Shown here: piece by piece, positions 1-62,065 of the stretch
Numbering within the stretch: the stretch's first letter is position 1
Layout: every line of letters begins with the position of its first letter
From: Stegostoma tigrinum
Taxonomy: Eukaryota
Direction of reading: 5' to 3'
NCBI RefSeq assembly: GCF_030684315.1
Contig: NC_081365.1
Span: forward strand, 35,305,394-35,369,393
DNA: 64,000 nucleotides
Notes under the pieces: model-generated
Database searches by the model: none
Seen by the model: the letters and a program-made list of their open reading frames with translations, nothing else
Told to the model about the DNA's origin: nothing
Program-made: the position numbers and the translations under genes

Positions 1-552
1 AATGCTGTACTAGATAGAAGTTATACTCTATAAAGGGTGTCCAATTTGTTCTCGAAAGGATGTTAAATTGGAGAGGGTTCAGGAAAGATTTACCAGGATG
101 TTGCTAGGAATGGAGGGTTTGAGTTATAAGGAGAGGCTGGATAGGCTGGGATTTTTTCACTGGAATGCAGGAGGTTGACGAGTGACCTTATAGAGGTTTG
201 TAAAATTATGAGGAGCATAAATAAGTTGAAGACCAAAGGCCTTTCCCCTAAAGTGATAGGTTTCAAAACTGGGAGACATATTTTTAAGGTGAGAGGAGAA
301 AGATTTAAAAGACAGCTGAGAGGCAACTTTCCCACAGAGTGGTTCTTATGTGGAATAAACTGCCAAAGGAAGTGGTAGATGCAGGTATTGTTATAACATC
401 TGAAAGTCATTTTGACAAGGATAGCATAAGTTTAGAGAGATATGGGCCAAATGCAGGCAAGTGGCACTAGCTTAGTTTGGGAAACTTGGTTGGCATGGAC
501 AAGTTGAACTGAAGGGTTTGTTTTCACATTGTATGAATCTATGACTGTATAA
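1..552 (+). mobile_element. CR1-clade LINE 3' fragment (end of ORF2 plus 3' UTR)
   Basis: Degenerate CR1 C-terminal motifs (LERVQERFTRMLLGM, DLIEVCKIMR, RHIFKVRGERF) followed by a typical tail ...gaagggtttgttttcacattgtatgaatctatgact. Confidence 0.85.
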
Positions 553-1699: not shown

Positions 1700-2212
1700 G
1701 ATAATGGGAACTGCAGATGCTGGAGAATCCAAGATAATAAAATGTGAGGCTGGATGAACACAGCAGGCCAAGCAGCATCTCAGGAGCACAAAAGCTGACG
1801 TTTCGGGCCTAGACCCTTCATCAGAGAGGGGGATGGGGTGAGGGTTCTGGAATAAATAGGGAGAGAGGGGGAGGCGGACCGAAGATGGAGAGAAAAGAAG
1901 ATAGGTGGAGAGAGTATAGGTGGGGAGGTAGGGAGGGGATAGGTCAGTCCAGGGAAGACGGACAGGTCAAGGAGGTGGGATGAGGTTAGTAGGTAGATGG
2001 GGGGTGTGGCTTGGGGTGGGAGGAAGGGATGGGTGAGAGGAAGAACAGGTTAGGGAGGCAGAGACAGATTGGACTGGTTTTGGGATGCAGTGGGTGGAGG
2101 GCTGGTTGTGTGGTGCTGCGGGGGGAGGGGACGAACTGGGCTGGTTTAGGGATGCGGTGGGGGAAGGGGAGATTTTGAAACTGGTGAAGTCAACATTGAT
2201 ACCATTAGGCTT
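1700..2212 (-). mobile_element. Penelope-like element family A, 5'-truncated 3' end with pLTR and hammerhead core
   Basis: pLTR gataatgggaactgcagatgctggag...; hammerhead core on - strand at 1797-1824; flanked by the duplication aagttgacaga (1689-1699 and 2213-2223). Confidence 0.9.
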
Positions 2213-6970: not shown

Positions 6971-8715
6971 AGATAATAGGCACTGTAGATGCTGGAGAAT
7001 CCGAGATAACAAGGTGTGGAGCTGGATGAACACAGCAGGCCAAGCAGCATCTTAGGAGCAAGAAAGCTGACGTTTCAGGCCTAGACCCTTCATCAGAAAT
7101 GGGGGAGGGAAAGAGGGTTCTGAAATAAATAGGGAGAGAGGGGGAGGCAGATCAAAGATGGATAGAGGAGAAGATAGGTGAAGAGGAGACTGACAAGTTA
7201 AAGAGGCGGGGATGGAGCCAGTAAAGGTGAGTGTACGTGGGGAGGTAGGGAGGAGATAGGTCAGTCCAGGGAGGACGGACAGGTCAAGGGGGCGGGATGA
7301 GGTTAGTAGGTAGGAAATGGGGGTGCGGAGGTGGAGGAGGGAATAGGTGAGAGGAAGAACAGGTTAGGGAGGCGGGGACGCACTGGGCTGGTTTTGGGAT
7401 GCAGTGGGGATAGCAGAGATTTTGAAGCTTGTGAAGTCCACATTGATACTATTGGGCTGCAGGGTTCCCAAACGGAATATGAGTTGCTGTTCCTGCAACC
7501 TTCAGGTGGCATCGTTGTGGCACAGCAGGAGGCCCAGGATGGGCATGTCATCTGAGGAATGGGAGGGGGAGTTGAAATGGTTCGCGACTGGGAGGTGCAG
7601 CTGTTTATTGCGAACCAAACATAGGTTTCTGCAAAGTGGTCCCCAAGCCTCCGCTTGGTTTCCCTGATGTAGAGGAGGCCACAACGTGTACAGCAGATGC
7701 AGTATACCACATTAGCAGATGTGCAGGTTAACATCTGTTTGATGTGGAAAGTCTTCTTGGGGCCTGGGATGGAGCTGAGGGAGGAGGTGTGGGGGTAGGT
7801 GCAGCACTTCCTGCGGTTGCAGGGAAGTGTGCCAGGTGTGGTGGGGTTGGAGGGGAGTGTGGAGTGGACAAGGAAGTCAAGAGAGAGTGGTCCCTCTGGA
7901 AAGCACACAAGGGTGGGGAGGGAAAAATGTCTTTGGTGCTGGGGTCGGATTGTAGATGGTGAAAGTGTTGGAGGATGATGCATTGGATGCGGAGCCTGGT
8001 GGGGTGGTGTGTGAGGTCGAGGGGGATTCTTTTTTGGTTGTTATTGGGGGAAGGGGGTGTGAGGGATGAGTTGCGCGAGACACCATCAAGGATGTTCTCG
8101 ACCACGGCGGGGGGGATGTTGCAATCCTTGAAAAACAAGGACATCTGAGATGTACGGGAGTGGAATGCTTCATCCTGGAAGTAGATGTGGTGGAGGCGAA
8201 GGAATTGAGAATAGAGGATGGCATTTTTGCAGGAAGGTGTGTGGGAGGAGGTGTATTCTAGGTAGCTGTGGGAGTCGGTGGGCTTGAAATGGATATCGGT
8301 TTCTAGGTGGTTGCCTGAGATGGAGACAGTGAGGTTCCGGAAAGTAAGGGAGTTGTTAGAGATAGTCCAGGTGAACTTGAGGTTGGGGTGGAAGGTGTTG
8401 ATGAAGTGGATGAACTGTTCAAGTTCCTCGTGGGAGCATGAGGCGGCGCCGATACAGTCATCAATGTAACGGAGGAAGAGGTGGGGTTTGGGGCCAGTGT
8501 AGGTGCGGAAGAGGGATTGTTCCACATAACCTTCAAAGAGGCAGGCAAAGCTTGGGCCCATGCGGGTGCCCATAGCCACCTCTTTTGTCTGTAGGAAGGG
8601 GGAGGAATTGAAAGAGAAGTTGTTGAGGGTGAGGATGAGTTTGGCTAGGTGGATGAGGATGTCAGTGGAGGGGGACTGGTCAGGCCTGTGGGACAGGGAG
8701 AAGCAGAGGGCCTGC
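6971..8715 (-). mobile_element. Neptune-type Penelope-like element, 5'-truncated, with RT, Cys-rich linker, GIY-YIG endonuclease and pLTR (frameshifted)
   Basis: ORF 7728-8741 has AMGTRMGPSFACLF and FLRYIDD (PLE RT). ORF 7303-7983 has CNRRKCCTYP and NVVYCICCTRCGLLYIRETKRRL (GIY-YIG). pLTR at about 6971-7100. Confidence 0.93.
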
Positions 8716-8719
8716 ACAT

Positions 8720-9480
8720 TGTTTGTATTTAAATAAACCAATGGCCTTTTGAATGCCTCAATGAAACTGTTTCAGTCGTACTTTCAGGCGTGCACTTTAG
8801 ACTCAACCTACCAGCTGAATGAAGTATTTTTTGTTTCCTCACCTCACATTTGGTACTTTTACAGAACAGTTGACAACATTGCCATCTGGTCCTCAAACCA
8901 TTTATGAAAGGGAAGAGTCTCTCTTCGTCAACTCTGTCCCAACCACTCTGATTTTGAAAACTGTCAATTTGTCTCTTGGCCTTCTCCACTCAAAGGAAAA
9001 CAGCCCCAGCTTCTCCAATCTTTCCTCAGAGCTGAAGTGTTTTATCCTAGAAGTCATACTAATAAACCTCCTGCACTTTCTCCGAAGTGTTCGCATCCTT
9101 TCTATGACATGGTGCCTAGAAGTATATACTACATTCTAGATAATACCCAAACAGTGTCTTATACATCATAAGATTCATCATAATCTCGCTGCTCTTGTAC
9201 TCTACACGCTACCTATGAAGTCTAGAATGCTGTATGCTTTGTTAACAGCTCTTGCTACCTGTCCTGCCACCTTTAATAATTTATGTCCATATACATCCAG
9301 GTCACTGTGCTCCATCACACCCTTTAGAATAGTACCCTTTTATTTTAACTATCTCTCCATTTTCTTTGTAGAAAAGTGCACTACCTCACACTTCTCTGCA
9401 TTAAATTTCAGCTGCCACCTATCTGTCCACTCCATCAACTTGTCAGTATCCATTTGAAGTTACTCACTGTCCTTGTCATA
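8720..9480 (-). mobile_element. CR1 LINE fragment(s)
   Basis: Minus-strand EERLEKLGLFSFEWRRPRDKL and WQLKFNAEKCEVVHF-like motifs. Confidence 0.8.
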
Positions 9481-11113: not shown

Positions 11114-11650
11114 GATAGGAGCAGGAGGTCATTTGGCCCTTTGAGCCTGCTACACCACCCCTCATGATCATGGCTGATCATCCAACTCAATAGCCTAATC
11201 CTGCTTTCTCCCCATAACCTTTGATCCCATTGGCCCCAAGTGCTATATCTAGCTGCCTCTTGAATGCATTCGATGTTTTGGCATCAAGTACTTCCTGTAG
11301 TAATGAATTCCACAGGTTCACCACTCTTTGGGTGAAGAAATGTCTCCTCATCTCCGTCCTAAATTGTCTACCCTGAATCCTCATACTGTAAATCCTGATT
11401 CTGGACACACTCATCATTGGGAACATCCTCCCCGCATATACCTTGCCCAGTCCTGTTAGAATTTTTTAATTCTCTAAGGGATACTCTCTCATTCGTTTGA
11501 ACTCTAGTGAAAACAATCTCGACCTAGTCAAATCTCTCCTCATTTGTCAGACCTGCCATCCCCAGAATCAGCCTGGTAAGCCTTCGCTGCACTACCTTGA
11601 GAGCATCCTTCCTCTGAAAAGGAGACCAAAACTGCACACAATATTCCAGG
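11114..11650 (-). mobile_element. CR1 LINE 3' part, interrupted by a PLE; continues at 13518-13645
   Basis: ORF FRTEMRRHFFTQRVVNLWNSL...; the LEYCVQFWSP motif is cut at the insertion site. Confidence 0.85.
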
Positions 11651-13517
11651 ATGATAAAATGTGAGGCTGGATGAACACAGCAGGCCAAGCAGCATCTCAG
11701 GAGCACAAAAGCTGACGTTTCGGGCCTAGACCCTTCATCAGAGAGGGGGATTGGGAGAGGGAACTGGAATAAATAGGGAGAGAGGGGGAGGCGGACCGAA
11801 GATGGAGAGAAAAGAAGATAGGTGGAGAGAGTATAGGTGAGGAGGTAGGGAGGGGATAGGTCAGTCCAGGGAAGACGGACAGGTCAAGGAGGTGGGATGA
11901 GGTTAGTAGGTAGATGGGGGTGCGGCTTGGGGTGGGAGGAAGGGATGGGTGAGAGGAAGAACAGGTTAGGGAGGCAGAGACAGGTTGGACTGGTTTTGGG
12001 ATGCAGTGGGTGGGGGGGAAGAGCTGGGCTGGTTGTGTGGTGCAGTGGGGTGAGGGGACGAACTGGGCTGGTTTAGGGATGCAGTTGGGGAAGGGGAGAT
12101 TTTGAAACTGGTGAAGTCCACATTGATACCATTAGGCTGCAGGGTTCCCAGGTGGAATATGAGTTGCTGTTCCTGCAACCTTCGGGTGGCATCATTGTGG
12201 CACTGCAGGAGGCCCATGATGGACATGTCATCTAGAGAATGGGAGGGGGAGTGGAAATGGTTTGCGACTGGGAGGTGCAGTTGTTTGTTGCGAACTGAGC
12301 GGAGGTGTTCTGCAAAGCGGTCTCCAAGCCTCCGCTTGGTTTCCCCAATGTAGAGGAAGCCGCACCGGGTACATTGGATGCAGTATACCACATTGGCAGA
12401 TGTGCAGGTGCACCTCTGCTTAATGTGGAATGTCATCCTGGGGCCTGGGATAGGGCTCCGGATACAATGCATCATCCTCCGACACTTCCACCATTTACAA
12501 TCCAACCCCACCACCGAAGACATTTTTCCATCCCCACCCCTGTCTGCTTTCCGGAGAGACCACTCTCTCCGTGACTCCCTTGTTCGCTCCACACTGCCCT
12601 CCAACCCCACCACACCCGGCACCTTCCCCTGCAACCGCAGGAAATGCTACACTTGCCCCCACACCTCCTCCTTCACCCCTATCCCAGGCCCCAAGATGAC
12701 ATTCCACATTAAGCAGAGGTTCACCTGCACATCTGCCAATGTGGTATACTGCATCCACTGTACCCGGTGTGGCTTCCCCTACATTGGGGGAACCAAGCGG
12801 AGGCTTGGAGACCGCTTTGCAGAACACCTCCGCTCAGTTCGCAACAAACAACTGCACCTCCCAGTCGCAAACCATTTCCACTCCCCCTCCCATTCTCTAG
12901 ATGACATGTCCATCATGGGCCTCCTGCAGTGCCACAATGATGCCACCTGAAGGTTGCAGGAACAGCAACTCATATTCCGCCTGGGAACCCTGCAGCCTAA
13001 TGGTATCAATGTGGACTTCACCAGTTTCAAAATCTCCCCTTCCCCTACTGCATCCCTAAACCAGCCCAGTTCGTCCCCTCCCCCCACTGCACCACACAAC
13101 CAGCCCAGCTCTTCCCCCCCACCCACTGCATCCCAAAACCAGTCCAACCTGTCTCTGCCTCCCTAACCGGTTCTCCTCTCACCCTCCCTTCCTCCCACCC
13201 CAAGCCGCACCCCCAGCTACCTACTAACCTCATCCCACCTCCTTGACCTGTCCGTCTTCCCTGGACTGACCTATCCCCTCCCTACCTCCCCACCTATACT
13301 CTCTCCACCTATCTTCTTTTCTCTCCATCTTCGGTCCGCCTCCCCCTCTCTCCCTATTTATTCCAGTTCCCTCTCCCCATCCCCCTCTCTGATGAAGGGT
13401 CTAGGCCCGAAACGTCAGCTTTTGTGCTCCTTAGATGCTGCTTGGCCTGCTGTGTTCATCCAGCCTCACATTTTATCATCTTGGAATTCTCCAGCATCTG
13501 CAGTTCCCATTATCTCT
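11651..13517. mobile_element. Large fold-back PLE family A insertion (two inverted GIY-YIG plus pLTR arms)
   Basis: Arm 11651-12455 (-) is nearly the reverse complement of about 12678-13482 (+); GIY-YIG motif YCIHCTRCGFPYIGGTKRRL; 14-bp TSD cacaatattccagg (11637-11650 and 13518-13531). Confidence 0.95.
13386..13419 (+). ncRNA. Minimal type-I hammerhead ribozyme motif in a PLE pLTR
   Basis: CTGATGA (13389-13395), A, stem II GGGT-CTAG-GCCC, GAAA (13409-13412), palindromic stem III ACGT, GTC cleavage triplet ending at 13416; identical cores at 1797-1824(-), 11714-11741(-), 45435-45462(-) and 61561-61588(+). Confidence 0.82.
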
Positions 13518-13645
13518 CACAATATTCCAGGTGTGGCCTCACCAAGGCTCTGTACAACTTCAACAACACATCCCTGCTCCTGTACTCGAAACGTCTCACA
13601 ATGAAGGCCAACTTACCATTGGCCTTCTTTACAGCCTGCTGCACC
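13518..13645 (-). mobile_element. CR1 LINE, upstream continuation of 11114-11650
   Basis: ccaggtgtggcctcaccaaggctctgtacaac reads LYRALVRPHLEY on the - strand and joins the 11650 side across the TSD. Confidence 0.8.
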
Positions 13646-15124: not shown

Positions 15125-15572
15125 ATGCAAGCTGGAAGAACAACACCCATTTTCCGCTAGGGGACCCTGCAGCCCTCCAGACTCAATATGGAGTTCAATA
15201 ATTTTAGGGCTTAAACTCTCCCATGTCCCAGCCCCCTACCCCACACACCAGGCCTTTTACCACGTAGCTTGCCATTTCAAACCACCTGTTGTTTGTCACG
15301 AATAGTCTGCATTAACAACTCCCTCCCAGTCTGATCATTATCAACTCTGTCCAACTGCTTTTCTCTCTCTTTAGGCTCTATCCTATCGTTTACTCCCTAC
15401 CCCATCCCCCTCACTATTTTCTGCATATAAAGTGATGTTTTCCCAGCCACCATCAGTTCTGAGGAAGGGTCACCAAACTCGAAACATTCATTCTTTTTTC
15501 CTTTACAGATGCTGCCAGACCTGCTTTGTGTTTGTTCCCGATTCACAGCATTCACAGTTCTTTCGGTTTTTA
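15125..15572 (+). mobile_element. PLE family C 3' end with decayed pLTR and hammerhead
   Basis: KLEEQHPIFPLGTLQPSRLNMEF (GIY-YIG C-terminus); gttCTGAGGAagggt...actcGAAAc; homologous to 51490-51958. Confidence 0.75.
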
Positions 15573-16267: not shown

Positions 16268-16904
16268 GATAATGGGAACTGCAGATGCTGGAGAATCCAA
16301 GGTAACAAAGTGTGGATCTGGATGAACACAGCAGGCCAAGCAGCATCTCAGGAGCACAAAAGCTGACGTTTTGGGCCTAGACCCTTCATCAGAGAAGGGG
16401 ATTGCAGTGCCTGGAGATGCCAGCGCATGGCTGCGAGTGTTTGTTTCAGAACTCGCAGGGAGAAACGCTTCTGAAGGGTCTGAATGTTCTAGGTGTAGAA
16501 GTGGTCATGGTTGGGACCAAGTTGGGAAGGCTTGAGTGTAGACTGTAGTCCATTGGGGATGATCTGGCTCAGTAGGCAGGTACTGAGGAAGGTGATGTGA
16601 CTGTGGTACCTGGTTTGCTTCAGGACATGGTCGAGCAGTTTCAAGGCTGAAGAGATTACAAGAGAGTTGCAATGGGAGAGAGATTCCCTGAGGTTGGTCC
16701 GGAGGGAGGAGGGTAACTTACTCAGGTTAGGCATCCCTGGAAGAGGCTTTGCAGTGAGGTTAAAATTGTATCAGTGATAATGGGAACTGCAGATGCTGGA
16801 GAATCCAAGATAACAAAGTGTGAAGCTGGATGAACACAGCAGGCCAAGCAGCATCTCAGGAGCACAAAAGCTGACGTTTCGGGCCTAGACTCTTCATCAG
16901 AGAG
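16268..16904 (-). mobile_element. Internally deleted PLE family A retaining the 5' pLTR, ATG, ORF N-terminus and 3' pLTR in direct orientation
   Basis: Direct pLTRs at 16776-16904 and 16268-16400; ORF from ATG 16734 contains HITFLSTCL..IIPNGL (PLE N-terminal HxxFLxxC..PxGL-type motif), with one stop at about 16489, and stays open to about 16400. Confidence 0.85.
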
Positions 16905-17890: not shown

Positions 17891-18530
17891 TCTATGAGGA
17901 GTTTAAACTCAGGAGTGGGCAAATACATCCTCCAATTGCGACTACTGGGTTGACATAAAATCATTTAAAAAGGGTTAGTGCAGTGATTATAGCTTCATTT
18001 ATCCAACATGAACTTTACAATTTTAGCTGTAGGGTAGTAGACTTTATCAGGAGCTCTCCTGTTTGAAGAGACGTCATTCAGAGTAGGAAGGGAAAAAAAA
18101 ACACGACAAGAATACTTGTGGATGTTGAGTTAAATTGAAGTACAGATCAGCAGAATGGCTCTAAACTGCAGGATATACTGTCTCTTTGTGCATATTCTCC
18201 AAAAAAATTTTACGGTTTACACAAATATTATGTATGGTTATGCTGCCTATTATGTTCAAGTTGGAAGCAATATCTTATCAACTGTGTGTAACAGTTATGT
18301 TAAGTGCCGTCTGTTCCCGCTCAGTGCTCCTTGGATTTCAACTCCAAACATGGTAACCTTTTCATTGCAATTTAGCTCTGTTGCCAAGACAAATTCTGTC
18401 TCCCTCTCCCTCTCTCTCTGCGCACACGCGTACACACACATGCAACCCGGCTTTCACCCTGCCTGCTTGGGCTCCTCAGCGATTAACTCAAAAATCCGAA
18501 ATCTGCCTCAAGTTTTATTTTCGAGCAGAA

Positions 18531-19024
18531 ATGTTTAGGGAAAATTCAAGTTTCATCGAGACTATTTTGTACGATAGTCCTGGGTGTAAGATTTTGAGAA
18601 ATGGGAGTGAAGGAGCTGTTTACCACTTGGCCAATGTCATGTTTACACTGGGCTACATGAGCGGCAGTGGGTTCTTTGGTCTCGTTTACCTATTTAGTCT
18701 TCTGGGCGTTGGGTTTTTTATTCAGTCTCTTTGGGGTTGGGTCGATGCCTGCGGACTGGATATCTTTATGTGGAGCCTGTTACTTTTTGTGTTCTGCTTG
18801 GTTCAACTGGCGCACATTGGTTACCGGCTGAGGAAGGTGAATTTCGGGGAAGACTTCACGAACCTTTACAAAGCTATGTTCCGGCCCCTCGAAGTGCCGC
18901 TCAGTGTCTACAAGGAGATCGTGAACTGCTGCGATGCCGAGGTGACGAGTCTCGCCCGTGAGCAGAACTACGCCGTGGAAGGCAAAACCGCAATTGACCG
19001 CTTGTCTCTGCTGCTCTCAGGCAG
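18531..19024 (+). CDS. POPDC2: Popeye domain-containing protein 2, first coding exon (three TM helices and start of the Popeye domain)
   Basis: MFRENSS...EGAVYHLAN...GSGFFG...WGWVDACGLDI...QLAHIGYRLR...YKEIVNCC...YAVEGKTAIDRLSLLLSGR; donor AG|gtcagt at 19025 (phase 2). HLAN, ACGLDI and YKEIV match POPDC2 better than POPDC3. Confidence 0.92.
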
Positions 19025-19721
19025 GTCAGTGGTAACAAGTGCTAGCAACCGGACAGTCTGCAACATAATACACTGTTTGGGAGGGGGGGGGGGGGCTTAA
19101 TGTAACCATTTGTTTGGTAGGATGTAACTGATACCAACGCCATTGCCCTCAAAAACACGTCGTGTTACTATGTAACTAGTTTTATCACGTACTCAAATTA
19201 TTCTCAGTCACACAGACAGATGCGTTTTTATCAACAACGTTGCCTCCAGCTTCAGTTCCTTGTAAATCGTCGGGATAAAACACCTTAATTTCACTATTTT
19301 TAGGGAGCGAATTCTCAAAAGAAAGTTATTTCGCTTTCCGCCCATAGCCTCAGACTGTGATTTTCTGAGAGTAGCTGAGGGTAAGGTAAGGTAGAACGCG
19401 GTTTACGCTAACTTTTTCTTTGTTTTAACCATTGACGTCTCGGCTTTTAATGTAATCCCACTTGCTATTCAAGTAGAACACAGCAAAGTGGCCGCTGAGA
19501 ATCCAGCCCCGCAAAGGCGCCAGTGTTTACTGTAGGATCCCCTCCCTCAGCAGTGATCCACGTTGTAGATTTCAGTGTCCCCTAGGGATGCAGGTGGAAT
19601 GCAGACTCACCCTCACTTTAGTAACATGGCTGTAACATAGTTTATTGACTTTATCCACTAAAATGGATATTTCATTAAAAAATTACTGTCCTCTGCCTTT
19701 AGTTAATAAGGACATGCAAAG

Positions 19722-28767: not shown

Positions 28768-31700
28768 TGGTCCAATAAATGTGATAAAACCCTGTCACTG
28801 TCTAGTCATGTGTAAGTACACTGCTGCTTCAAATCTTACAACTACACCTAATAAAACTAACTTGGCTATCTAATTCTGCTGGACCACTGTGACAGTATGT
28901 GGTAAGTGGAAAAGCTGTCCTTGTGCAGTTGGGATGTTATGCTGACATTGAAGTATGTTGCTATGATGGATAGCAAATAGTTGTCATTTAACACACTGTG
29001 TTATACTTTCTTTAGTGTTTAAAACTAGTCAACCATACATGGACAACAATGTGTGACAAATTTAAGGAATTCTGTCATAAAACTAAGGATCTGCTTCACT
29101 ATGTGTAAGCATTACTGTGTTACCAAACTTTTTCACTTATTAATAAGAAAACATGTTTTGTCCCATGGCTTTATAAGCACGTTTAATTATGTTTTATTAG
29201 ATTTGGAACCCTTATCTTTCTGTCAGACTATCAATTTTTAAAAGAAAAATAAATCTAACAAAGCTTTGCAGGACATTTTCATCTTAATTTGTCCTCAGGT
29301 ATTATGGTGCATTTTTACTCAGGTAATTACATTGATTAAAAAATTCATTGATTACATAACTTGCATATTGCAGTTGCAGTAGCAGCCAATTTCGATGCAG
29401 TTACGCCAATCTGCACCAGTTCATAGAATATGAGGATTAACCAGACAGTTTACTGATAGGTCAAGCGATGACTAATGAATTCTTCACTGGTCAAAGCCAT
29501 TCCATCACATTCTCTGTAAAATCCAAGGTATCATTGTTTGTGGAATAGAGGGATGATCATGAATCAAAATAGTGTCTGTCTGTCAGTCCATAAGCACTGA
29601 CAGAATCTTGCAGGTAAATGCTCACTTCCTTGGCAACTATTATGATGACTTAATTTTAAGATAGTCCAATATTTACTTTTTATTTGACCAGTAAAGAAAA
29701 GTTGAAAGTTAGTTTCAAGGAGACTAAATGTACCTTCAGGTTAATTTTAGATGTCATCTGTTCCTCTGACCTCCAGGTATGAGAAAGTGAGACAAGCATT
29801 GGAAAAATCATTACCCCCAAGTTCTCATCCAAGCCGTTCACATTCTAATTAAGACAGATTAGGAGGTGCAGATACTAAACCAAATACCATCATAGGAGCA
29901 CTATATTCACATGTTCCGTGAAAAGACTAATGATTCCTTCCTCTGAGCAACAATAGGGATTGTATGAAATGCCAAATGTCACTCTTGCACACATTCCAAA
30001 ACTTATAATGCAGATATGACTGTGTTATAAATGACAGAAGATTACACTGAAGAAAGTAATGACAGGGAAACGTCAGGAAAGATAGACTACTATTGAAGGA
30101 ACAATGACATGTAGTTAGTCAATGTAAGGATGGCTAGAAGTGAATTACTCATGCTATAATAGTTGCTGTATAAATAACAATAGCTCTTAGTATAATTTTC
30201 TACCCTCAGCTCCTGGTGAGATCACAACTTTTCACAATGAATAATGATTTTTTCTGCAGTTAGTGCTTTCAACAATAGTATCTGAGAAAATATTTCAATG
30301 CTATTGTCAATGGTGCTGTAAGGTTTCTATGTCCTTCTCTTTAAACAATAGGAAACTGCTGTTGCTTCTTTTTTTAAAACATCCCTTTAGAATTAACAAA
30401 GCCCAAACGTTCTCAAATAAAAACAAAGTACTAGAAAAGGTTATCAGATCTGGTAGTATTTGTGGAGAGAAAAACACAGTTAACATTTTGAGTCCAATAT
30501 GACTTCTTCAGAACTGTCTACACTTTATGTTCTTATTAAAATGAGAAATGTCTGTGACAACACTGTGTCTCACTAATAGGCTAAAAGAAGAAAACACTTA
30601 AGGACCAAATTCCCTTTGAGCTTACTCCTCAGACAAATGTTTAGCACAATAAGACTGACATCTCTTGTTGCTTATGCCCTCAAACCTAATACATTTTACA
30701 GAGTGAAGAATGTTTCAGTATTGGCTGCTTTGGGGGTCAGAATGAGGTTTATGCCTTAACTGGGAATGGGTGGAATACTTCGGCATCAGTGAGGCTTGGG
30801 AACAGGCGTATTTTTTTTTAAATGGGCCTCCAGACTCACAGTCATCTGCTGTATGAAATTTGTCATGTTATGTAGTTCCCCAGTTGACTGGCATCAAGCC
30901 AGCCATTTATGAGCATGAATCCTTTGGAAAATGTGACAAATGGGACAATTATGATGATTCGTAAATAAGCTGATAAGGAATTCAACCCCAAAATATGCAT
31001 ACAATACCTTTTGTTATATTAACACTGCTAGAACAGAGAAAATGAATAATTGGCCACCCTCAGTGCTCTACACTGACTTGGTTTGATTCTTGACATGTTT
31101 AATATTCATGCTGTTTGTCTTTATTTGAGGCAGCCAGACTCTGGGGCCATTGTTTAGATGGTAGTTCACCAAAATTAAGTATGTTTGGCGGAATAAGGAT
31201 CTTGCCCAAGTGCCATTCAGGTTAGCACCTGCTGCCACTCCTCCTGTACTTTGCACCCATGCACACGTGGGCATTCAATTCTGCCTACATTGTACAAACT
31301 ATGAATCGGAGAAGTAGCTGCTGTTGGGGAAGAGGGGAGCAGTTTGGCCTTGAGCTGGTAGGAGAGAAGAATGAGGAAGGCAAGAGCACTATGTTTGATG
31401 GGAGGAGAATATAAACTGAAAGCAGTACAGTTTAAGTGAGGGGCACCAAAGGTGCTGGATCTGTTGGTTTGCTGATAAGCCAAAGTAAATTTTAAAATTT
31501 GTTCTTGAATATGTGAGCAACATGGAAAGAATCACATTCATTGCCTAAGGGTAATGGATTACTGCATTGCTTTGTGGAGGGCTCCATAATTGAGTTAGGC
31601 AATTTTAATATGTTGAATCTCAGCAAATGAAAAATATCAGTTGGTTGTGAATGTTTAAAAGTGGTTTATTGCTGTTCATTTTAATGTAATAGAAAAATCT

Positions 31701-45371: not shown

Positions 45372-46173
45372 ATAATAAAATGTGAGGCTGGATGAACACA
45401 GCAGGCCAAGCAGCATCTCAGGAGCACAAAAGCTGACGTTTCGGGCCTAGACCCTTCATCAGAGAGGGGGATGGGGGGAGGGAACTGGAATAAATAGGGA
45501 GAGAGGGGGAGGCGGACCGAAGATGGAGAGTAAAGAAGATAGGTGGAGAGGGTGTAGGTGGGGAGGTAGGGAGGGGATAGGTCAGTCCAGGGAAGACGGA
45601 CAGGTCAAGGAGGTGGGATGAGGTTAGTAGGTAGCTGGGGGTGCGGCTTGGGGTGGGAGGAAGGGATGGGTGAGAGGAAGAACCGGTTAGGGAGGCAGAG
45701 ACAGGTTGGACTGGTTTTGGGATGCAGTGGGTGGGAGGGAAGAGCTGGGCTGGTTGTGTGGTGCAGTGGGGGGAGGGGATGAACTGGGCTGGTTTAGGGA
45801 TGCAGTGGGGGAAGGGGAGATTTTGAAACTGGTGAAGTCCACATTGATACCATATGGCTGCAGGGTTCCCAGGCGGAATATGAGTTGCTGTTCCTGCAAC
45901 CTTCGGGTGGCATCATTGTGGCAGTGCAGGAGGCCCATGATGGACATGTCATCAAGAGAATGGGAGGGGGAGTGGAAATGGTTCGCGACTGGGAGGTGCA
46001 GTTGTTTGTGGCGAACTGAGCGGAGGTGTTCTGCAAAGCGGTCCCCAAGCCTCCGCTTGGTTTCCCCAATGTAGAGAAAGCCGCTCCTGAGATGCTGCTT
46101 GGCCTGCTGTGTTCATCCAGCCTCACATTTTATTATCTTGGAATCTCCAGCATCTGCAGTTCCCATTATCTCT
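45372..46173. mobile_element. Young fold-back PLE family A in TAF13 intron 1
   Basis: About 710-bp minus arm plus about 90-bp inverted pLTR tail; perfect 16-bp TSD cacaacttgttcacag (45356-45371 and 46174-46189). Confidence 0.95.
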
Positions 46174-49316: not shown

Positions 49317-50234
49317 ATGTGGTAGTAGGGGGGTGGACAAGGTCAGAAATCATGCAACACCAGGTTATAGTCCAATGGGTTTATTTGAAAACACGCTTTC
49401 GGAGCCTTACTCCTTTTTCAGGTGTTTGTGAGAGGTAGTCTCAGACACAGAATTTACAAGTAACAGATCAAAAGGTTACACCATTGATGTGGATGTACCA
49501 AACAAATCTAAGATGCTGTTAAATCATTAACCAGTTGAAAATTTTAATTGATTATTATGTATACGTAAATCCCTGAATTCCTTTCAAGTCACTGTCCTGT
49601 GAGAACCAAAGGCTTTACCAGTGTCAAGAAGAGGGACATTTTAGATCAGACAATGCGACTTAGGTGTGAGCCCTTGTTTAGAATCATTTTTGTGTTTTAG
49701 TTTGGAGTCAGACTGGTTTTATTTCTAAATGAGGAATTTATAAAACACCAAATTGACTGTCTATGAATTGTGTGCTTTTTGAACAAAACAGAAAGTGTGG
49801 TGGGGTCACTGGTAGTGCAGTATGAACCCAAGATCCCATCTGAGGCTGTCCTCATGGGTACTGAACTTGGCTACCAGCTTCTGCTCGGTGACTCTGTGCT
49901 GTTGTGTAACCCAAAGTCCAACTTGGAGGATGTTTACCCGACGATCTGAGGCCGAATGTCCTTGATTACTGAAGCGTCCCCCACTGGGAGGGAACATTTC
50001 TGCCTGGCAATTGTTGCGTGGTGTCCATTCATCTGTTGTTATAGCATCTGCATGGTTTTAAAATATTGTTTAGTACATCCTCATCAATAGTGTGACCCTT
50101 TGATCTTTTACTTATAAATTCTGTGTCTGATACTACCTCTCTCACTAACATGTGAAGAAGGAGTAAGGCTCTGAAAGCTTGTGTTTTCAAATAAACCTGC
50201 TGGACTATAACCTGTTGTCATGTGATTTCTGACC
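49317..50234. mobile_element. PLE family B, fold-back, with GIY-YIG C-terminus and a different pLTR/hammerhead
   Basis: Minus-strand QQMNGHH...LPVG..F...GHSASD...EQKLVAKFSTH...DLGFILHYQ*; inverted arms at about 49339-49475 and 50096-50236; TSD ttatttaattaag (49304-49316 and 50235-50247). Confidence 0.85.
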
Positions 50235-50737: not shown

Positions 50738-51958
50738 GCCCTCCTGGGTTTAGAGTGGATATTAGTGGCCGATCTATCCCCAGAAATGGAAACAGATGTT
50801 GTGAAAGGGAAGGAAGGAGTCGGAGATAGACCAGCTGAAAGTGAGGGCAGGGTGGAATTTGGAAACAAAATCACCAAACTTTTCCAATTCTAGACAACAG
50901 AGAGAGAAGCAGCACCAATGATATCGTTGTTATATCAGAGAAAGAGTTGTGGGTGGGGGCTGGAATAGGACTGGAACAAGGAATGTTCCACATACCCCAT
51001 GAAGAGACAGGCATAGATGGGGCCCAGACAGGTACCCATGGTCACCCCTCTGAACTGAAGAAAATGAGGAAAAGTTAAAGAGAAGTTGTTGAGGGTAAGG
51101 ATGAGTTCAGCCAAGCAGAGGAGAGTGGTGGCGGGTGGGGACAGTTCAGGCCTTTGCTCCAGGAAGAAGCGGAAAACCCTAAGACCATTCGGAAATGGGA
51201 ATGAACATGTAAAGGGTTTGCATCTATATGGTAAAGAGGAGGCGGCCAGAACTGGCAAACTAGAAATTTTGAAACTGGTATAAAACAGCAGGAGAATTAC
51301 GGATATACATTGGCGGGGACTGGACCAAGGGAGAAAAGACTGAGTCACGGTAGAAAGAAATGAGTTCTGTGGAGCAGAAACAGGCTAAAACAATGGGTCT
51401 GCCCAGAAAGTCCTGTTTGTAAAGTGCCTCCCACTTTAAAACACCATCCTGTTCCCTGACCAAGCGTGCTGCAGTGTACCATCAAAGCTCAGCATAAGCT
51501 AGAAGAACAACACCTCATCTTCCACTTGGGGACCCTACAGCCCTCCGGAATCAATAACGAGTTCAATAATTTTAGGACGTAAACTCTCCCATGTCCTAGC
51601 CCCCTACCGTACACACCGGGCCTTGTTATCACATAGTCTGCCATTGTACACTACCTATTGTTAGACACTAACAGTCCGCATTAACATCTATTCACCCTCC
51701 TAGCAAGATCATTATCAGTTCATTGTCTAGCCAACTACTCTTCTCTCTCTCTGGGCTCTATCCCCACTATTGTTTACTCCCTAAGCCTTTCCCCTCCTTG
51801 TTTTCTGCATATAAACCAATGTTTTCCTAACTACCATCAGTTTTGAGGAAGGGCCACCAGACCCGAAATGTTAACTCTGATTTTTCCTTCACAGATGCTG
51901 AGCTTTTCCAGCAACTCCTGTTTTTGTTCCTGACTTACAGCATCTGCAGTTCTTACTT
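50738..51958. mobile_element. PLE family C, rearranged (RT piece on -, endonuclease end plus pLTR on +)
   Basis: LILTLNNFSL...GVTMGTCLGPIYACLFMGYVE on -; KLEEQHLIFHLGTLQPSGINNEF and pLTR on +. Confidence 0.85.
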
Positions 51959-56471: not shown

Positions 56472-56577
56472 GCCTACGGTAATAATTGTCTGAAGATACC
56501 TGATCTCACCTGACCTCAGACTTAGGTCTGGTTTGTATTTAGACGGGAGACTGCTTGGGAATACCAGATGAAGCTGT
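56472..56577 (+). pseudogene. Degenerate 5S rRNA-derived sequence
   Basis: gcctacgg...ctgaa...cctgatctc..ctgacctc...ggtctggtttgtatttagacgggagactgcttgggaatacc aligns along vertebrate 5S rRNA, with a deletion in the A-box region. Confidence 0.8.
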
Positions 56578-56591
56578 CACTGTCTAATCAA

Positions 56592-60866: not shown

Positions 60867-61563
60867 CTGATCCACATGATCTGATGTCACATAACATAGA
60901 TCCTTAAGCACATGCTTAGTAGTTATTCTTAGAGTAATTGTATAGTTAACTTTTTATTTCATATCTCCTTCGATGATATTTTATGCTGCTCTGTTTCAGT
61001 TCTAAAATTTAACTATGAACTATGAACTCTTTACTCCCATTTATCCCCACCCTCGCTTTCAAGTCCATTTAGATGTTGATTTCTAATAGTATTCTCAGCT
61101 TCCTTGGTGAGCATCTAGGATGTATGTTCTCTTTTATCATTCTTTAGGAAGGTGAATGCAGAGGCGGAATGGACTAGCACCTTCTCTGTAGATAACCACA
61201 TTTCCAAAACGCCAAAAGAAAGTAAAAGTGCTGATGAGAAACTAGATTTCTGAAACAGAATCTGTGCAAGTTCCTGCTAGCACTGGGGTCCGCTGGCTAA
61301 ACAGAAAATTTGTTTACTTTGTTACTATTTCTAAATCATTAATAGAGTTTTTAGTGCCATAAGCACAGAGACAGATCCTTCGGTCCAATCAGTTCATGCT
61401 GAACATAAGGCCACACCTCCCTTATCCTAACCCATATCCCTCTGATCCACATGATCTGATGTCACATAACATAGATCCTTAAGCACATGCTTAGTAGTTA
61501 TTCTTAGAGTAAATGTATAGTTAACATTTTATTTCATATCTCCTTCAATGTTATTTTATGCTG
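60867..61563. repeat. 122-bp direct duplication (60867-60988 and 61442-61563)
   Basis: 4 mismatches counted by eye; the second copy is fused to a pLTR. Confidence 0.93.
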
Positions 61564-62065
61564 ATGAAGGGTCTAGGCCCGAAACGTCAGCTTTTGTTCT
61601 CCTAAGATGCTGCTTGGCCTGCTGTGTTCATCCAGCTTCACACTTTTTATCTCGGATTCTCCAGCATCTGCAGTTCCCATTATCTCCCTCTAAACCTTTT
61701 GTTTTCATGTACTAAGTGTCTTTTAAACAATGTAACTGTGCCCGCATCCACCACTTCCTGGGAAATTCATTGCACACATGAACCACCCTCTGTGTAAAAA
61801 AACTGCCCCTCTTGTCTTTTTTAGATCTCTCTCCTGTCACCAGAAATATATGGCTCCTAGTCTTGAAATCTCTAATCCTAGGGAAAAGACACCTACCATT
61901 GACCCTATCTATATGCCTCATGATTTTATAGACCTCTATCTGCACCTCTTAAACCCCTACACTCCAGTGAAAAATGATCCAGCCAATCTAGCTGATCTTT
62001 ATAACTCAAACCTTTAAAACCAGCAACATCCTCTTTCGAACCATCTCTAGCTTGATAAATATCAT
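61358..62065 (-). mobile_element. CR1 3' end interrupted at 61444-61684
   Basis: IEVYKIMRHIDRV...FFTQRVVHVCN; the CR1 sequence cccatatccctct|aaacc is split by the insertion. Confidence 0.82.
61561..61684 (+). mobile_element. pLTR of PLE family A with an intact hammerhead core
   Basis: ctgatgaagggtctaggcccgaaacgtcag...cagttcccattatc. Confidence 0.92.

Follow-up and report, generated by a model that had tools for sequence, protein, structure and literature searches.

The window analyzed here, a stretch of 64,000 nucleotides, carries an insertion of a Penelope-like element (PLE) that consists of a 5'-truncated copy and an inverted copy, as delimited by its inverted repeats and by reading of its boundaries. 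The insertion is flanked on either side by a 14-bp target-site duplication. Throughout, positions within a copy are counted from C3 as +1, at the beginning of the CUGANGA box (13389 for the focal copy), with the predicted family-A cut falling after +28 (13416). In this numbering, the plus-strand arm of the focal insertion terminates at +129 with a tail, and its minus-strand arm terminates at about +91. The focal insertion and the other family-A features of the window are as follows.

11637..11650, plus strand: target-site duplication, 14 bp, left copy
11651..13517, no strand assigned: focal insertion, 5'-truncated PLE plus inverted copy
11714-11741, minus strand: family-A core in the inverted arm of the focal insertion, identical 28-nt core
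12453..13148, plus strand: part coding for the Zn-linker and GIY-YIG endonuclease, 94% in tblastn to residues 772-1003 of the L111 ORF (see below)
13355..13360, plus strand: TATA-like box, 34 nt before the focal core, with the RNA start predicted near 13385
13387..13418, plus strand: focal minimal hammerhead of family A, with a 2-bp stem I (13387-88/13417-18)
13389-13416, plus strand: focal family-A core, predicted cut after 13416
13389-95, plus strand: CUGAUGA box of the focal hammerhead, extra A at 13396
13397-400/13405-08, plus strand: stem II of the focal hammerhead, GAAA at 13409-12
13412-15, plus strand: loopless palindrome of the focal hammerhead, with C17 at 13416
13518..13531, plus strand: target-site duplication, 14 bp, right copy
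1797-1824, minus strand: family-A core, identical 28-nt core
45435-45462, minus strand: family-A core, identical 28-nt core
61561-61588, plus strand: identical 28-nt family-A core; the copy is short, begins at the core and lacks the stem I 5' arm
7069..8723, minus strand: older family-A copy, in which a hammerhead (7069-7096) is preceded by remnants of RT and endonuclease (7388-8723)

A 122-nt direct duplication (60867-60988 and 61442-61563, 97% identical) ends at the start of the core at 61561. Elsewhere in the window, an open frame on the plus strand (18357-19100) is an exon of a Popeye-domain gene (Pfam POPDC1-3, E 4e-40), and a weak 5S rRNA-like match at 56475-56579 on the plus strand (25.8 bits, E 0.5, below the cutoff) possibly reflects chance or a SINE head.

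Among the 20 copies with long ORFs that we examined, one, L111, represents a full pLTR-ORF-pLTR element. Its pLTR forms an 833-nt direct repeat (inverted pLTRs are present in others), and its two identical hammerhead cores lie 3,648 nt apart and flank a single ORF. This open frame of 1,008 amino acids contains RYIDD, which we take to be an RT motif, followed by a CX4CxxC linker and by GFLYIG of a C-terminal GIY-YIG domain. Pfam returned a weak GIY-YIG match (E 0.004) and no RT match in this ORF, and the inverted copy of the focal insertion likewise gave a weak GIY-YIG match (E 2e-4) under the curated cutoff. The order of RT and C-terminal GIY-YIG in one ORF, the direct or inverted pLTRs and the copy ends at +92 and +129, which fit the optional tail of 30-40 nt, agree with an EN+ PLE. 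The likely start codon of L111 is located ∼140 nt past the predicted cut. According to the accessible text of PMC8557442, a CX2-5CxxC zinc-finger-like linker between RT and EN marks the Neptune clade. As judged from the CX4CxxC linker before its GIY-YIG domain, a linker shared by Nematis, the family-A element is Neptune-type. Tandem arrays of the retrozyme type were not encountered in the window, where the copies are dispersed or inverted.

The first-pass annotation of this DNA had described five identical family-A cores and had identified them as minimal type-I hammerheads of PLE pLTRs. The same 28 nt are indeed present at all five sites, and the identification is supported. A 33-mer around the family-A core is found 78,083 times as an exact match in the 3.2-Gb genome, compared to 0 times for its reversed control. 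With a minimal-hammerhead descriptor (boxes, stem II and NUH), we obtained 71 matches in 864 kb, compared to 1, 1, 1, 1 and 5 in five shuffles, and a Watson-Crick 15.2/16.2 pair was present in 44 of these 71. An Rfam search did not detect any hammerhead family and returned only hairpin-driven miRNA matches, all below cutoffs. The CUGANGA and GAAA boxes and NUH are intact in family A and, genome-wide, also in three further families, B, C and D. The extra nucleotide after A9 is present, and the G10.1-C11.1 pair is kept in 16/16 rows (15 G-C and 1 G-U). Conservation of the core relative to its flank among copies is uninformative, because copies decay neutrally once inserted and the flank downstream is conserved as well. 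We conclude that the hammerhead motifs are genuine, of a class already known in PLE pLTRs.

Families B and C had been read from the window as well. Their consensuses occur exactly elsewhere in the genome (119 copies for B and 1,660 for C), but no copy of either is intact in the window.

49390..49424, minus strand: family-B hammerhead, damaged, with G8A and a shortened cut region
50149..50183, plus strand: family-B hammerhead, damaged, inverted copy, with C3G
15455..15492, plus strand: family-C hammerhead, damaged, with stems II, III and I broken
51839..51876, plus strand: family-C hammerhead, damaged, with C3T and an upstream endonuclease C-terminal remnant (51466-51609)
30478..30515, minus strand: C-related degenerate core without G12 and with a different stem II

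Genomic copies of family B show free variation at N7 and in loop II. Family D (L221-L240) has 382 exact genomic copies, a 6-bp stem II and an ACGT palindrome, and none of its copies was found in the 64-kb window; its protein motifs are presumably Poseidon-like. The proteins encoded upstream of the cores match that of L111 at ∼41 to 61% in old-A and C and at 34% in one B copy, and on these values old-A, C and B are distinct families, with A and C being related.

Comparison of the families confirmed the earlier observation that the catalytic boxes are kept while the stems differ. Stem III is, as had been noted, always a loopless palindrome, being ACGT in A, old-A, C and D and AGCT in B. Two other elements of the annotation did not withstand this comparison. 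A compensated stem I had been described for family A, yet this stem comprises only 2 bp (CT/AG) both in the window and in long-ORF copies and is missing altogether from the copy at 61561; representatives of the other families have stems of 4 bp (old-A and C) or 5 bp (B and D), compared to the 2 bp of the focal family-A copy. The palindrome is also not specific to each family, since A and C share ACGT with old-A and D and only B has AGCT, and most families would therefore not be separated by the proposed palindrome-restricted pairing. AGCT of family B can pair with ACGT over only 2 of 4 positions. The 5' arm of C and the 3' arm of A can form 4 bp, compared to 2 bp between the arms of A itself, and any family selectivity would come from stem I rather than from the palindrome.

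Along the A lineage, in an order of variants inferred from divergence, the stem I arms changed from AGTC/GACT (22 exact copies) through ATTT with AACT or AGCT and then TTTT/AGCT to CTCT/AGCT in the youngest copies. The second stem I pair is C-G in the youngest A subfamily and U-G in the older ones. Covariation across families, with 75% of cells paired and 0/500 shuffles, lends weak support to the stems, most rows having been picked by stem-demanding patterns and five B rows being one column out of register in their 3' half. The family-A monomer is predicted to be inactive, with CUGAUG pairing with CGUCAG in a competing 6-bp helix that ends at +30; in a 40-mer, the ensemble frequency of this inactive fold is 0.83. 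By nearest-neighbour estimates, which do not include tertiary contacts, the active family-A homodimer is predicted to lie 17 kcal/mol above two monomers, compared to 2.5 to 5.5 kcal/mol for old-A, B, C and D.

A family of >78,000 copies allows insertion ends to stand in for RNA ends. In a random sample of 1.264 Mb (121 stretches, the window included), 57 of 126 at-risk A copies had their 5' ends at -6..+1, which corresponds to 0.082 per nt compared to 0.004 to 0.017 in seven other intervals. The same was true for 23 of 37 at-risk family-C copies, and 12 of 30 family-B copies lacked the upstream pLTR, starting at about -4 to -8 as judged by eye. Overall, the position just upstream of an intact core was the start point of about 28% of copies. 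A TATA-like box lies at -34 in A (32/32 counted), at -33 in C (5/6) and at about -39 in B (5/8). Among pLTR-less copies of old-A and C, 16/28 have a G before the start (p = 0.002 versus 0.29), which fits a copied cap; in the older ATTT subfamily of A, a G was seen by eye in 1/8 copies, and A, T or C was commoner. Family D has the core and shows no 5' pile, its upstream pLTR being kept in 20/20 copies by regular expression and in 19/20 by eye. That D keeps its upstream sequence indicates that the core alone does not stop RT. Transcription probably starts 2 to 5 nt before the core, at the stem I 5' arm and ∼30 nt after the TATA-like box. An intron ending in stem I, in the style of Drosophila virilis, was considered and rejected, with AG being found there in C and old-A and absent in young A.

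At the other end of the copies, 193 A alignments chosen for reaching +45 showed 3' ends clustered at +91..94 and +126..131. Since these ends lie beyond the cut at +28, the templates were uncut at the 3' core, and reverse transcription would start internally, at about +92 and +129, past this core. Of the 30 copies chosen by ORF start (L131-L160; this pattern occurs 3,422 times as an exact match in the genome), most are short inserts whose ends, at about +200 to +300, indicate that RT starts further downstream too. No 5' pile was seen in these 30 copies, which are mostly short long-tailed inserts. In the window, a family-A copy on the minus strand (16503-16904), preceded by a G, extends from -4 to at least +365 in the 5' end of the ORF and has an unusually long tail.

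We further analyzed the starts of copies around the predicted cut. Genome-wide, there are 709 perfect fold-backs centred on the AGCT directly after the cut, compared to 23 centred on a downstream GGCC and 38 on ACGT, a control that contains CpG and may be undercounted. A pattern for copies truncated inside +25..+33, with perfect palindromes excluded, gave 3,048 matches, of which the first 100, all on contig C1, were listed. Seventeen of these first 100 matches had nothing matching upstream of the fixed part, and a hand tally of the other 83 gave 4, 11, 7, 8, 24, 3, 4, 7 and 15 starts at +25 through +33, respectively. The excess at +29 among these first 100 of 3,048 matches is significant (p = 8e-6, or 0.002 minus six microhomology fold-backs). 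A secondary excess in the same set was seen at +26 (11/83 rows).

We read 22 of the 24 +29 loci in context, over 400 to 1,500 nt of flank, and none had a non-PLE flank in common with another; in most cases the flank is a PLE arm or unique DNA bearing target duplications. The 18 +29 loci outside the six microhomology fold-backs include two solo copies with target duplications and one internal deletion (L332). At one locus (L341, G000:C1:89141013-89141615), we observed head-to-tail repeats of the +29..+97 unit, as if RT had run from the start site to the cut end and then jumped template.

The random 1.26-Mb sample showed no excess at +28..+30 (5/175, 0.0096 per nt, equal to background), and 3/204 copies in it start at +29, all of them fold-backs. 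In 301 stretches chosen otherwise, 6/205 arms (from 4 insertions, one of which is among the 24) start at +29, with 1 to 2 at neighbouring positions. The share of family-A copies starting at +29 is about 1.5 to 3%, and a rough extrapolation yields about 2,600 such copies. In the random sample, 0/53 family-C copies start at their own cut site, a comparison that is underpowered and whose repeat was hampered by indels. An interpretation drawn from smaller samples, according to which there is no signal at the cut site, was revised after the genome-wide counts. The single-nucleotide start excess at the predicted cut suggests real cleavage.

Our preferred reading, to which we assign a probability of roughly two-thirds, is that the pLTR hammerheads of Neptune-type PLEs likely lie at the RNA 5' end and that most copies derive from uncut RNA, with a small share of family A likely being cut after GUC, probably with the help of protein. 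Pairing of the two cores, inside a single transcript or across two, would run through the 4-bp palindrome, and in family A the 2-bp stem I together with the competing helix would leave most of the RNA uncut. Cutting at the 5' core would strip a capped leader of roughly 32 nt, about 140 nt before the start codon. Since the cap leader would be lost, cutting would act as an off switch or a leak, and maturation would not require it. With its weak stem I, the family-A ribozyme probably needs the element's protein in order to cut, as has been shown for the Anolis element PAc. Cutting is thus likely to be occasional and protein-assisted rather than obligatory processing. The TATA-less, internal promoter described for D. 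virilis Penelope in the accessible text of PMC2377424 counts against this reading. We put forward more tentatively, at somewhat short of even odds, that in vivo PLE hammerhead cleavage has left a fossil record in the genome: the ribozyme, whose stem I spans 2 bp and whose ground fold is inactive, would lie at the capped RNA start and be activated inside the element's RNP in a few percent of templates, with removal of the cap and thousands of insertions beginning at the scissile bond.

The main rival invokes RT pausing at the inactive hairpin, whose end lies at +30. The family-A hammerhead would then be dead, the +29 peak would result from RT pausing or template switching at the foot of this hairpin, after a U-run and at AGCT, and the core would serve some other role, for instance as a promoter or protein-binding site, or would be a passenger. 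We consider this unlikely, if clearly the strongest competitor. Stem I has eroded along the A lineage, from AGTC/GACT down to CTCT/AGCT; the end of the 6-bp monomer helix (frequency 0.83 in the 40-mer) lies close to the peak, and the random sample lacked a cut-site excess. However, a stall at the helix foot would place starts at positions +30 through +32; among the first 100 of 3,048 matches these are low (3, 4 and 7) compared to 24 at +29, and fold-backs are 19 to 31 times fewer at two other 4-nt palindromes. Further arguing against it, the second pair of stem I is C-G in the youngest subfamily, as opposed to U-G in older ones, and D. virilis Penelope, as described in the accessible part of PMC4209133, has a 2-bp helix I too.

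Routine processing by dimer-dependent self-cleavage, with the palindrome limiting pairing to the element's own family, was the interpretation originally proposed, and we now regard it as improbable. In its favor, all families have loopless palindromes, the full transcript carries two cores, AGCT of B matches ACGT at only half of its positions, and dimer cleavage has been reported for other PLE hammerheads (PMC4209133 and PMC6765202, accessible parts). Yet at either end copies read across intact cut sites and continue beyond them, their 3' ends lying past the cut (about +92 and +129) and ∼28% of their starts just upstream of an intact core, which speaks against cleavage as a routine step. Moreover, ACGT is common to A, C and D, and Anolis PAc still inserts normally in vitro when its hammerhead is mutated (PMC11167929, accessible part). 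That another element, for example a Tx1 LINE, left the +29 junctions as scars at the DNA level is the least probable explanation, with 0/22 of the +29 loci sharing a non-PLE flank within the 400 to 1,500 nt read.

The function of PLE hammerheads is called unclear in the accessible text of PMC8557442. The copy ends described here suggest that the RNA begins at the ribozyme, is usually copied uncut and is sometimes cut, and the exact coordinates together with a natural stem I series from 4 bp to 2 bp are usable for a bench test. Our literature search, the coverage of which was incomplete, did not find a published report of such a cut-site footprint.

The shark hammerheads closely resemble the minimal hammerheads of metazoan PLEs (Cervera and de la Pena 2014, PMC4209133), which in the accessible part of that study are likewise of type I without loop III, with a palindromic 15.2/16.2 pair, one extra nucleotide between A9 and G10.1 and a G10.1-C11.1 pair. 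The pLTR location, the presence of several families per genome and the predominance of solo truncated copies are also the same. Helix I comprises 4 to 5 bp in Schistosoma (PMC4209133, same part), similar to the 4 to 5 bp of old-A, B, C and D and different from the 2 bp of family A. That part of PMC4209133 gives no in vivo evidence for PLE hammerheads and contains no analysis of copy ends. Animal non-LTR retrozymes, as described in the accessible text of bioRxiv 10.64898/2026.07.22.740005, share type-I hammerheads from PLE pLTRs and are present in the one chondrichthyan sampled there. In contrast to their tandem arrays of hammerhead units, the copies in the window are dispersed, truncated or inverted PLE insertions.

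The Anolis Poseidon element PAc (Frangieh et al. 2024, PMC11167929, accessible part) similarly shows internal RT starts at two sites, separated by about the length of a tail, and uses mainly uncut RNA as a template, with protein-dependent cleavage that we infer for family A as well. PAc belongs to the Poseidon clade and has its start codon inside the ribozyme, whereas the Neptune-type family A has its ATG about 140 nt past the cut. For PAc, the accessible part of the same paper describes no RNA-seq ends at the cut site, whereas family A shows a small peak of genomic copy starts there. Penelope of D. virilis (PMC4209133, accessible part) shares with family A the 2-bp helix I and the character of a very uniform, recently amplified family. 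Its hammerhead is located at an intron end, downstream of a TATA-less internal promoter (PMC4209133 and PMC2377424, accessible parts), whereas in family A no splice acceptor lies next to the hammerhead, and the ribozyme seems to be where the RNA begins.
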